A DNA stretch of 64,000 bases from an uncultured Acidobacteriaceae bacterium (lineage in GTDB: Bacteria; Acidobacteriota; Terriglobia; Terriglobales; Acidobacteriaceae). The stretch is taken from assembly GCA_964249715.1 (NCBI GenBank), contig CAXUDN010000002.1:14801-78800 (forward strand), given 5' to 3'. A program made the translations under genes and the position numbers. The notes below the pieces were generated by a model that made no database searches, was not told the origin of the DNA, and saw nothing but the letters and a program-made list of their open reading frames with translations. Below, in pieces: positions 39,197-41,252 of this stretch (the first letter of the stretch is position 1; each line of letters begins with the position of its first letter).

Positions 39197-39272
39197 TGGA
39201 GCACCGGATCAGATTTGAACTGATGAATACTGGTTTTGCAGACCAGCGCGTTAGCCACTTCGCCACCGGTGC
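39197..39272 (-). tRNA. tRNA-Cys (GCA)
   Basis: Full cloverleaf: acceptor GCACCGG/CCGGTGC, anticodon arm CTGGT-CTGCAAA-ACCAG, T arm ATCAG-TTCAAAT-CTGAT, U73, encoded CCA. Confidence 0.95.
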
Positions 39273-39287
39273 CTGGACAATGCCGCC

Positions 39288-39944
39288 CTACCGCGGCTGC
39301 GCCGTTGTGCGCAGGTAGGGCTTCACCGTCTTGTAACCCGGGAAGATCTTCTCGGCTTCTTCGTTGCTCACGGCGCCGGTGATAATCACATCCTCGCCCT
39401 GCTTCCAGTTCGCGGGTGTTGCGACCTTGTGCTTCGCCGTCAACTGCATGGAGTCCAGCACGCGCAGTACCTCGTCGAAGTTCCGGCCCGTGGTCATGGG
39501 ATAGGCCAGGTGCAGCTTGATGCGCTTGTCCGGCCCGATCACAAACACGGTACGTACGGGCGCGTTCAGCGCCGCGGTGCGGCCCCCTTCCACGTCACCG
39601 GCATCGCCCGGCAGCATGTCATAGAGCTTGGCAATCTTCAGTTCCGGATCGCCGATCATCGGGTACTTCACCGGCGAGCCGCCCACATCTTCGATGTCCT
39701 TGGCCCACTTCTGGTGACTCTCCACCGGGTCCAGCGAAAGGCCGATCACCTTCGCGCCGCGTTGCGCAAACTGGCTTTCCAGGCTCGCCATGGCGCCCAG
39801 TTCGGTTGTGCAGACCGGCGTAAAATCCTTGGGGTGCGAAAACAGAACAGCCCAGCCGTCCCCAATCCACTCATGAAAATGAAGGGTGCCCTGGGTTGTT
39901 TCGGCGGAGAAGTCCGGCGCTATATCGTTGATGCGAAGAGACAT
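39288..39944 (-). CDS. 1-Cys peroxiredoxin (Prx6 / LsfA-like)
   Basis: FSHPKDFTPVCTTE active site, YPMTTGRN and ATPANW; only one Cys in 218 aa. Confidence 0.95.
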   Translation of the reverse strand: MSLRINDIAPDFSAETTQGTLHFHEWIGDGWAVLFSHPKDFTPVCTTELGAMASLESQFAQRGAKVIGLSLDPVESHQKWAKDIEDVGGSPVKYPMIGDPELKIAKLYDMLPGDAGDVEGGRTAALNAPVRTVFVIGPDKRIKLHLAYPMTTGRNFDEVLRVLDSMQLTAKHKVATPANWKQGEDVIITGAVSNEEAEKIFPGYKTVKPYLRTTAQPR

Positions 39945-40062
39945 CAGATCCCTTTCCATGTCGAGCGCCTGAGGCAGGCGGAAGTGGCATTTGCAAAGAG
40001 GCGCATGCCTCGCGTTCAAAAGGTTAGATTCGTTGAAGTGCGTTCCGTCGCGGGCCGGCATG

Positions 40063-40095
40063 CAAAGACCCACCCGGCTCAGCCTGGGTGGGTCT
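40063..40095 (-). terminator. Putative attenuator (3:4) hairpin upstream of the peroxiredoxin
   Basis: Minus strand AGACCCACCC-AGGCTGAGCC-GGGTGGGTCT then TTG; 10-bp perfect stem with only a short U tract. Confidence 0.6.
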
Positions 40096-40133
40096 GGACT
40101 TGCTTTTTGACGCCTTGCTCTTTCGTCTCTAGC

Positions 40134-40211
40134 TCATCCGCTCACCCCTGCCAGGCCGCAGCAACAGCAGCGGCAGAGACAGCGGGTCGGGATGGACGAA
40201 GAGGAAAGCAT
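40134..40211 (-). CDS. Putative poly-cysteine leader peptide MLSSSSIPTRCLCRCCCCGLAGVSG
   Basis: ATG 40211 to TGA 40134; 6 Cys in 8 consecutive codons; overlaps alternative hairpins ahead of a peroxiredoxin and tRNA-Cys. Confidence 0.7.
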   Translation of the reverse strand: MLSSSSIPTRCLCRCCCCGLAGVSG

Positions 40212-40334
40212 GTCATTCAATCTGCACCGCAGGGGCAGGTTGGTCCCCTTTGCGGTGAACCCAAGGTACGAAACGCGCGGCGCGCTGTCAACTGAGATCG
40301 GGCTGCGCACCCACCAACTCGCTAGACTGGCAGC

Positions 40335-41252
40335 ATGGAAACACGCCTCAGTTACTCCGTTCTCGACGTCTTCGCGGAGGCGCCGCTCGAGGGCAATCCC
40401 CTGGCGGTCTTTCACGATGGCCGCGGCCTCACCGGCCTTCAAATGCAGGCCCTCGCGCGCGAAACCAACCTCTCCGAAACCACCTTTATCCTGCCCTCGG
40501 AAGACCCCGAGCAGGACCGCACCGAGGGCGTGCGCGTCCGAATCTTCACCACGCAGGAAGAACTGCCGTTTGCCGGTCATCCCACCCTGGGTACGGCGAG
40601 TTGGTTGCGCCTGCATCATTCTCCCGTGCGCGGCGCCGAGACAGTGACCCTTCGACTGAACGCAGGCCCCGTGCCGGTGCACTTCCCCCCGGAATCGCGG
40701 GGCAACCAGAAAGGCGTCTACGGCTCAATGCATCAGCCTGACCCAGCGTTCGGCCAGGAGTTCGCACCGGCTGAGGTGGCAAAGATCCTCGGGCTGGACG
40801 AAGCCGATCTGCTGCCCGGCTACAGGCCGCAGGCTGTTTCGACCGGCAACGCCTTCTGCGTCGTGGCCCTGCGCTCCGTCGCGGTGCTGGGAACCCTTGC
40901 CATCCCGCAGCGCGAGGCCACAGAGTGGCTCCACGCGCGCGGCATCCGCTGGTTCTACTGCATAGCCCAGGATGGGACGGGCAGCAGCCAAGACACCTGG
41001 CGCGCCCGCATGCAATGGCACAGCGGCGAGGACCCGGCCACAGGCTCGGCCGCAGGACCTTGCATCGCCTGGCTTGTACGGCACGGCTTGGCGGGATCGG
41101 GGCGGCCGATTGAGATTCATCAGGGGGTGGAGATCATGCGCCGGAGTCGTCTGATTGTGCAAGCAACCTCGATTGACAAGGCAATTCGCGAGGTACGGGT
41201 AGCAGGCCGCACCATTCCCGTGGCAACCGGAGTTTTTCTCCTCCCTTCCTAA
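40335..41252 (+). CDS. PhzF-family (diaminopimelate-epimerase fold) protein
   Basis: DVF...GNPLAV, NLSETTF, ELPFAGHPTLG and EDPATGSA motifs. Confidence 0.93.
   Translation: METRLSYSVLDVFAEAPLEGNPLAVFHDGRGLTGLQMQALARETNLSETTFILPSEDPEQDRTEGVRVRIFTTQEELPFAGHPTLGTASWLRLHHSPVRGAETVTLRLNAGPVPVHFPPESRGNQKGVYGSMHQPDPAFGQEFAPAEVAKILGLDEADLLPGYRPQAVSTGNAFCVVALRSVAVLGTLAIPQREATEWLHARGIRWFYCIAQDGTGSSQDTWRARMQWHSGEDPATGSAAGPCIAWLVRHGLAGSGRPIEIHQGVEIMRRSRLIVQATSIDKAIREVRVAGRTIPVATGVFLLPS

Follow-up and report, generated by a model that had tools for sequence, protein, structure and literature searches.

A predicted trp-type cysteine attenuator upstream of a 1-Cys peroxiredoxin gene and a spare tRNA-Cys in Acidobacteriaceae

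Leader ORF, promoter and 5' RNA element

The window analysed comprised 64,000 nucleotides (nt) of contig CAXUDN010000002.1 (positions 14,801 to 78,800, forward strand) from assembly GCA_964249715.1 of an uncultured Acidobacteriaceae bacterium (genome G000, 83% complete). On its minus strand a promoter-like site, a structured 5' RNA element, a poly-Cys leader open reading frame (ORF) and a set of alternative hairpins precede a gene for a 1-Cys peroxiredoxin (prx) and a tRNA-Cys gene. The leader is quite probably a ribosome-mediated transcription attenuator of the trp type that reads charged Cys-tRNA, and it is predicted to gate a transcript carrying both prx and the tRNA-Cys, a spare copy. The ORF with six Cys in eight codons, the helices, prx and the tRNA had been reported in a preliminary description of the same DNA, and every feature named there was located again at its position.

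The leader ORF (40211-40134, minus strand, 25 codons) encodes MLSSSSIPTRCLCRCCCCGLAGVSG; codons 11-18 (Cys codons 40181-40158) hold six Cys, and no NCBIfam model matched the peptide. The 4-Mb assembly contained 79 stop-to-stop frames with at least five Cys in eight codons; the Cys run by itself was thus not above chance, and conservation became the deciding test of its reality. The 401 nt of upstream DNA matched 28/36 same-genus genomes and 0/24 genomes of another family in the order; the best 20 of the 28 matching loci, window included, were compared (ORF parsed by script in 19, by eye in L004), and second matches in G035 and G036 proved to be a coding region and a repeat, not further leaders. 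Each of the 20 combined promoter, poly-Cys ORF and terminator stem with a Prx6 orthologue followed by a tRNA-Cys; ARAGORN reported the tRNA in 18, and in the other two, where a contig end or Ns interrupt it, it could be made out in the spacer. The last Cys stood 7 codons before the leader stop in 17/20, and the codons before the Cys run varied freely.

GTDB genomes were scanned for a pattern of three Cys codons combined with the terminator, which covered 120 of about 670 estimated loci; visual inspection removed 16 (records with non-acidobacterial titles, or lacking a promoter or U-tract) and 104 were kept. The resulting promoter contrast (95/104 kept, 0/16 dropped) is partly circular and was not used as evidence. 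An in-frame start codon was present in 100/104 kept loci, and across relatives the ORF held 3-7 Cys in 8 codons. Wobble-read TGT made up 311/605 leader Cys codons versus 1443/5908 in the long ORFs of G000, an enrichment that would be predicted if wobble decoding sharpened sensing. Named records with this leader type were labelled Granulicella or Acidobacteriaceae, and a few kept records bore other labels. L091, labelled Rhodanobacteraceae, has an acidobacterial-type 5' element, a Cys leader and a bare spare tRNA beside phzF, and is either a mislabel or a transfer.

The predicted sigma70-type promoter, TTGACA-N17-TACCTT (40291-40263), would start transcription near 40257-40255. TTGACA, a 17-18 nt spacer and a TAnnnT hexamer recurred in 20/20 genus loci, and the 5' element followed the hexamer at 6-8 nt; the generic promoter scanner did not call the site in the window. 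The distance from promoter end to leader ATG is 51 nt in this genome. The preliminary description had read CAGATT, 7 nt before the ATG, as compatible with a leaderless transcript; the motif is there (40224-40219), but a -10 role was rejected for this genus, since the conserved promoter and the structured 5' RNA lie further upstream. Leaderless-like spacing does exist in other clades (ORF at most 8 nt from the -10 box in 36/92 scan loci). In related loci AGATT (AAGGATT in other clades) stands before the leader start codon and probably serves, if weakly, in ribosome binding rather than as a -10 box; CAGATT is likely a weak remnant of such a signal.

The 5' element (40257-40225) consists in the window of stems P1 (ACCGC/GCGGU, nearly invariant) and P2 with a CAACCU loop (AAC being retained in the P2 loop). 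A variable third stem, P3, completes a three-way junction in most relatives and is missing in the window and in L002-L004 (loci L001-L004). In the alignment 95% of cells were paired and 9/18 pairs had changed on both sides, counts that are inflated by kinship of the sequences; 1/500 shuffles scored as high, and slid registers reached at most 58% pairing. Neither the window leader nor the full-length element of L019 had an Rfam match at gathering score, and a known riboswitch (T-box included) was rejected on that basis. Of 121 family genomes searched with model R1, 17 matched at E 0.05 or better, and the strongest 4 matches were all at Cys leaders; R1 behaved largely like a sequence profile, so that diverged copies may have escaped it. 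The idea of a mobile or multi-gene motif was dropped, the four weaker matches examined (L196-L199) lying off Cys leaders and being chance-like. Further copies occurred at Edaphobacter- and Granulicella-labelled loci.

At L225 (G006) the 5' element is cleanly deleted, with promoter, AGATT, leader, mini-ORF2 (described below) and terminator kept. Unrelated 5' hairpins open the leaders L073, L074, L079, L089, L093, L095, L096, L130, L141, L161, L170, L172 and L183, in most of which the start codon is preceded by AAGGATT or AAAGA. Comparison of these leaders suggests that 5' structure is favoured irrespective of its sequence; the element is likely an accessory structure, protecting the end or aiding initiation.

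Alternative helices, masked folding and mini-ORF2

Segment 1 (40185-40172) pairs with segment 2 (40155-40132), the 5' arm of the antiterminator, whose core GGGUG lies at 40147-40143. Segment 2 can pair instead with segment 3, and segments 3 and 4 (40098-40063, short U tail included) form the putative intrinsic-terminator hairpin 40095-40066, its CACCC (40090-40086) being shared with the antiterminator. The duplex energies were -20.5 kcal/mol (1:2) and -16.3 kcal/mol (2:3), and the 3:4 hairpin gave -23.7 kcal/mol, followed by merely UUG (tail CUUUGC); the mutually exclusive helices and the hairpin with UUG proposed previously lie at the coordinates given for them. The 211-nt leader folded better than 200/200 shuffles (z -3.96). 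GGUG was invariant in the alignment; the register of segment 1 was not conserved, and no shared 1:2 register emerged when RNAalifold was run on the MAFFT alignment. The prx start lies 123 nt past the terminator here and 60-153 nt past it in the genus loci.

The spacing from the last Cys codon to GGUG was 10 nt in 17/20 genus loci, a gap that largely answers the earlier caveat about segment 2 being covered by a ribosome stalled at the end of the Cys run. Masked folding was carried out on 137 loci (133 unique), with the ribosome-covered part removed and arm 4 not yet transcribed; capture was scored at P>0.5. With the mask ending 6 nt past the last Cys, CACC was captured upstream in 120/137 loci (85% at 9 nt); with the mask ending 6 nt past the leader stop, in 1/137. 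In the window the antiterminator formed whichever of the six Cys codons was the stall site, with energies from -36.7 to -22.0 kcal/mol. Ribosome-masked folding, named in the preliminary description as a check, therefore gave the predicted switch, in kinetic form only: the terminator wins at equilibrium once arm 4 exists, so that 2:3 must act kinetically. The trp attenuator also acts kinetically.

Mini-ORF2 (40137-40129, minus strand) overlaps the leader stop as ATGA and reads MS* in the window, where an earlier stop is present and the usual stop is lost; in most relatives it has 5-6 codons. The ATGA overlap was found in 41/134 unique loci. The frame closed before the terminator in 39/41 of these (stops TAA, TAG and TGA) versus 22/93 of the others in the same frame; the two remaining frames closed there in 4/45 and 6/45 loci. 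The median gap from leader stop to terminator was 43 nt in ATGA loci versus 32 nt, and the ORF2 stop shortens it to 27 nt. Leader and ORF2 are fused in L013, L018, L148 and L152, with the final stop kept. The ORF2 peptide is poorly conserved, and the antiterminator stem explains part of the nucleotide conservation. Taken together, the related loci are suggestive of a ribosome that restarts on ORF2 and would keep segment 2 covered for longer.

Peroxiredoxin, spare tRNA and other target genes

The prx gene (39944-39288, minus strand) encodes a Prx6-type protein of 218 aa with a PVCTTE motif, and its single Cys agrees with the earlier assignment. PRK13189 was the best NCBIfam model, below its cut-off; PDB entry 6p0w matched with E 1e-75, along with peroxiredoxin-6 entries. 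The top PDB matches, 6p0w and 7kuu, we take to be LsfA. Thiol-dependent peroxidase activity is expected from the family.

The 104 kept loci placed the leader before a peroxiredoxin (79), a bare tRNA-Cys (14) or other or unknown genes (11); after the 79 prx genes came tRNA-Cys (26), tRNA-Sec, the selenocysteine tRNA (14), no tRNA within the locus (10) or sequence too short to tell (29). A different Prx subtype stands behind the same leader in L072, L093, L114, L127, L128, L140, L142 and L149, often with the same spare tRNA; L072 and L114 pass PRK13189, and L072 is about 36% identical to the window Prx. The leader also precedes sbp-cysT (L095), a YeiH-like gene (L086) and genes of the nitrite/sulfite-reductase family (L075 and L084, profile matches below curated cut-offs; L110 and L166, assigned from their resemblance at the N terminus). 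A cysteine synthase gene comes after prx in L080 and L137. The downstream genes, as annotated, fit the amino acid presumed to be sensed: tRNA-Cys here, sulfur genes in related loci.

These targets bear on the proposal that the nascent Cys-rich peptide itself, its thiols oxidised or metal-bound in the exit tunnel, stalls the ribosome, so that redox or metal stress would be the signal. A peroxidase as the main target would suit it, as would the C-terminal tail CG-P/L-x-x-VSG, which is conserved within the genus. However, the tail differs from clade to clade while the number of Cys and the spacing are maintained, its codons double as the antiterminator arm, the same leader precedes sulfate and cysteine-synthesis genes, and the TGT enrichment points to decoding; we regard peptide-borne stalling as decidedly unlikely.

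The tRNA-Cys (39272-39197, minus strand) starts 15 nt after the prx stop, as previously reported. It has a cloverleaf, a GCA anticodon, a U73 discriminator and an encoded CCA, and cysteine acceptance is predicted; GCA and U73 are identity elements of cysteinyl-tRNA synthetase (CysRS). ARAGORN and a BLAST-type search had indicated it as the sole tRNA-Cys, until pattern searches turned up a divergent housekeeping copy. This second, unlike tRNA-Cys lies behind tRNA-Gly(GCC) in 5/5 complete genus genomes; in G000 it is cut by a contig end. Five anticodon-to-T-arm matches to the housekeeping tRNA-Cys occur within 78 kb of G003 (C1:3437531-3515224), probably remnants of repeated integration.

Among the 53 genus genomes at least 90% complete (a subset that leaves out the unpublished G224, counted in the 84/101 totals; the unpublished G085 entered family tallies alone, on which nothing here is based), housekeeping tRNA-Cys was found in 50 and the spare in 46. 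All seven without the spare (G005, G007, G008, G009, G018, G032 and G241) keep the housekeeping copy and gave no prx orthologue with the query used: four hold only a 46-49% identical Prx with neither leader nor tRNA, and three had no match at 1e-30. Six of the seven were in the leader DNA comparison and also lacked the leader.

The spacing from prx stop to tRNA-Cys was 15-159 nt across the 20 genus loci, and in L102 and L081 the prx-tRNA spacer shrinks to 13-16 nt, which suggests co-transcription. Scans of the 20 loci gave no promoter at a recurrent place upstream of the spare tRNA, and the 15-nt spacer of the window gave no match; housekeeping tRNA-Cys loci scored 7/9 for a promoter in 4/5. 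In the 14 bare loci prx is missing and the spare tRNA comes next after the leader, 26-167 nt away.

A real attenuator might nevertheless govern prx alone here, the tRNA-Cys being served by its own promoter or by unregulated basal read-through. The promoter scans were crude, a stable tRNA would blur induction, some spacers (up to 159 nt) hold hairpins, and the single best-scoring tRNA-Sec of G148 and G071 occupies the same slot; a promoter of its own might be expected for a tRNA on which selenoproteins depend. Against this stand the bare leader-tRNA loci, the 15-nt spacer free of promoter matches and the joint absence of tRNA and prx, and restriction to prx appears unlikely. The tRNA as a regulated target, put forward in the preliminary description, is retained as far as the link goes (adjacency, bare loci, joint absence, no conserved promoter of its own); the reading is amended in that the gene is a spare copy and not the cell's sole tRNA-Cys.

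In a sister clade tRNA-Sec(UCA) takes the tRNA-Cys slot (top tRNA-Sec match in G148 and G071), following a Cys-leader prx in L080, L081, L085, L088, L094, L097, L099, L101, L102, L106, L120, L122, L131 and L143. That these ARAGORN calls might be Cys-anticodon variants was rejected: 14/14 have UCA, and selA was present in 4/4 tRNA-Sec genomes tested; it was not found in G000 (assembly 83% complete). The clade includes records labelled Ca. Sulfotelmatobacter, and L080 runs on into the cysteine synthase.

Neighbouring genes: a PhzF-family isomerase gene (40335-41252, plus strand) diverges from the leader and holds the same place in most relatives; beyond the tRNA, 38759-36441 (minus strand) encodes a 772-aa protein with choice-of-anchor D domains and a lipo-invert C-terminal domain. 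The DNA beyond the tRNA varies between relatives and is integration-site-like.

Proposed mechanism and known systems

The cysteine-attenuation reading, first advanced in the preliminary description, is backed at sequence level by conservation, spacing, masked folding and the sulfur-gene targets of the same leader. As proposed, transcription would begin near 40256 and translation at ATG 40211. When cysteine is abundant, ribosomes would run on to TGA 40136, cover GGGUG and restart on the overlapping mini-ORF2, so that the 3:4 terminator would form. When Cys-tRNA is scarce, through sulfur starvation or an oxidative drain of cysteine, the ribosome would stall on the Cys run, and GGGUG, left uncovered, would pair with CACCC ahead of the synthesis of arm 4; by this antitermination the polymerase would run through prx into the tRNA.

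Several observations weigh against this mechanism. The loci are related, and the counts are not independent; the joint absence in seven genomes may be a single loss. Dinucleotide shuffling of segment 2, a G-rich stretch, still gave 60% capture versus 120/133 unique loci observed, so that capture in the folding model is above control, yet partly compositional. In full-length equilibrium folding with the Cys run masked the terminator won in 91-93% of the 137 loci, window included. Alignment, also proposed earlier as a check, gave conserved Cys run and hairpins; covariation in these helices was almost nil (2/25 pairs), the terminator and antiterminator cores being near-invariant. A clear Shine-Dalgarno (SD) sequence is not present, and ATG 40216, 5 nt upstream of the leader ATG and lacking in the closest relatives L002-L004, competes as the start of an out-of-frame, Ala-rich ORF of 24 codons with one Cys (40216-40142, minus strand), which stops inside segment 2 and could, if translated, blunt the switch. 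Some prx-tRNA spacers hold weak promoter-like matches, up to 7/9 once. The best Prx loci of other genera (28) had leader and terminator in 12 and mostly no clear leader in the rest; at L036 and L039 a leaderless-type Cys ORF and a terminator 5' arm lie upstream of prx, the 3' arm is missing, and control would be different or lost.

The U-tract of the window has 3 U and is weak in L002-L004 too, and the terminator was not called by the scanner; the short tract, raised as a caveat before, stands as a real weakness in this genome. The U tail is longer in most relatives (kept scan loci average 6.7 T in 9 nt). A switch that has decayed in this lineage to a leaky, near-constitutive leader would account for the weak tail, as for the two-codon ORF2, the rival ATG and the shortened 5' element with P3 missing in L001-L004. 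It would also suit the result that no Cys leader was found in G000 before sulfite-reductase-like or cysteine-synthase genes. Among 72 promoter-like sites of this 83%-complete assembly no further Cys attenuator was convincing. With six Cys codons, the exact spacing and both helices intact, and with the closest relatives retaining the same design despite different codons before the Cys run, decay seems very improbable. On every feature examined in the sequence the element matches a classical attenuator, save the strength of this genome's U-tract.

A more ambitious version of the attenuator, tentative and rather doubtful, makes it a tRNA homeostat, in which low Cys-tRNA induces the spare tRNA-Cys (tRNA-Sec in the sister clade), the two ORFs act as a relay and the 5' junction supplies a second input. 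The spare tRNA would then win scarce cysteine for translation, or replace tRNA-Cys lost to oxidation or nuclease cleavage; the restarted ribosome would hold the antiterminator shut, and the three-way junction would be an undescribed regulatory RNA.

A cysteine-specific attenuator whose likely targets are a peroxiredoxin and a spare cognate tRNA would be a variation on the known kind, leader-peptide attenuators normally governing amino-acid synthesis genes or synthetases. Control of an extra copy of the sensed tRNA would, if true, feed back directly on decoding capacity, and could explain, in a way open to test, why these bacteria keep two unlike tRNA-Cys genes. Antioxidant defence would be tied to sulfur status with no protein regulator, in an abundant and poorly studied soil phylum; the coupled mini-ORF suggests a means of tightening attenuators, and the tRNA-Sec variant suggests that sulfur shortage may raise selenocysteine decoding. 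A terminator-type cysteine attenuator would also become open to experiment, a type otherwise met as a prediction (PMC8632094).

The literature searched contained no account of this element, nor of any leader-peptide attenuator in front of a tRNA gene, in keeping with the earlier remark that none was known from Acidobacteria; most subscription papers, attenuation surveys included, were beyond the search. Almost no predicted acidobacterial attenuators have an assigned function, according to the accessible text of PMC2965389. The main text of PMC8632094 lacks 'acidobact' and one supplementary file lacks acidobacterial names; the main text of PMC11109978 has no cysteine, peroxiredoxin or Acidobacteria (its supplements could list the motif), and nothing relevant was found in PMC4695836.

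The uORFC-8-2 motif before cysS in Rhodobacterales is a predicted Cys upstream ORF (uORF) with an intrinsic terminator, read through at low Cys-tRNA (PMC8632094, Brewer et al. 2021). Compared by its description only, it shares with the present leader the predicted Cys-codon uORF and terminator; it is alphaproteobacterial, has two Cys codons in tandem (around positions 14-15) and, as described, stands exclusively before cysS, whereas here 3-7 Cys in 8 codons precede prx, tRNA and sulfur genes in Acidobacteriota. The same source, as far as available, predicts a separate protein-binding candidate before ahpC-like genes. The mycobacterial 'Cys ribulon' comprises leaderless polycysteine small ORFs (sORFs) under translational control (bioRxiv 10.1101/834739, 2020, where, in the part available, uORF attenuation for cysteine is stated to have been previously undescribed); poly-Cys leaders had been predicted in mycobacteria earlier, with no terminators in the portion available (PMC1262725). 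Both kinds of leader use a poly-Cys sORF, here presumed to sense charged tRNA-Cys as there, and are common to several sulfur operons; as described, the mycobacterial leaders are leaderless, sequester the SD by the Cys tract and have no terminator, unlike the terminator and 5' leader of this genus.

LsfA of Pseudomonas aeruginosa, likewise a 1-Cys Prx6, is induced by sulfur starvation, being up more than 45-fold (PMC12581299, in whose available text no leader-peptide control is mentioned; further sources, also partly available, are PMC4199769 and PMC12141841). The T-box likewise senses tRNA charging through a terminator and antiterminator but binds the tRNA directly, and no T-box match was obtained here. 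T-boxes have reportedly been predicted before clostridial tRNA genes.

The closest general model is the leader-peptide attenuator of E. coli trp and Salmonella his (outlined in the available part of bioRxiv 10.1101/834739). A short leader, tandem cognate codons, exclusive 1:2, 2:3 and 3:4 helices, a terminator-type hairpin and predicted kinetic control are common to both; here, unlike trp and his, cysteine would be sensed, prx and a spare cognate tRNA would be the targets, and a coupled mini-ORF2 and a 5' RNA element accompany a leader with no clear SD.

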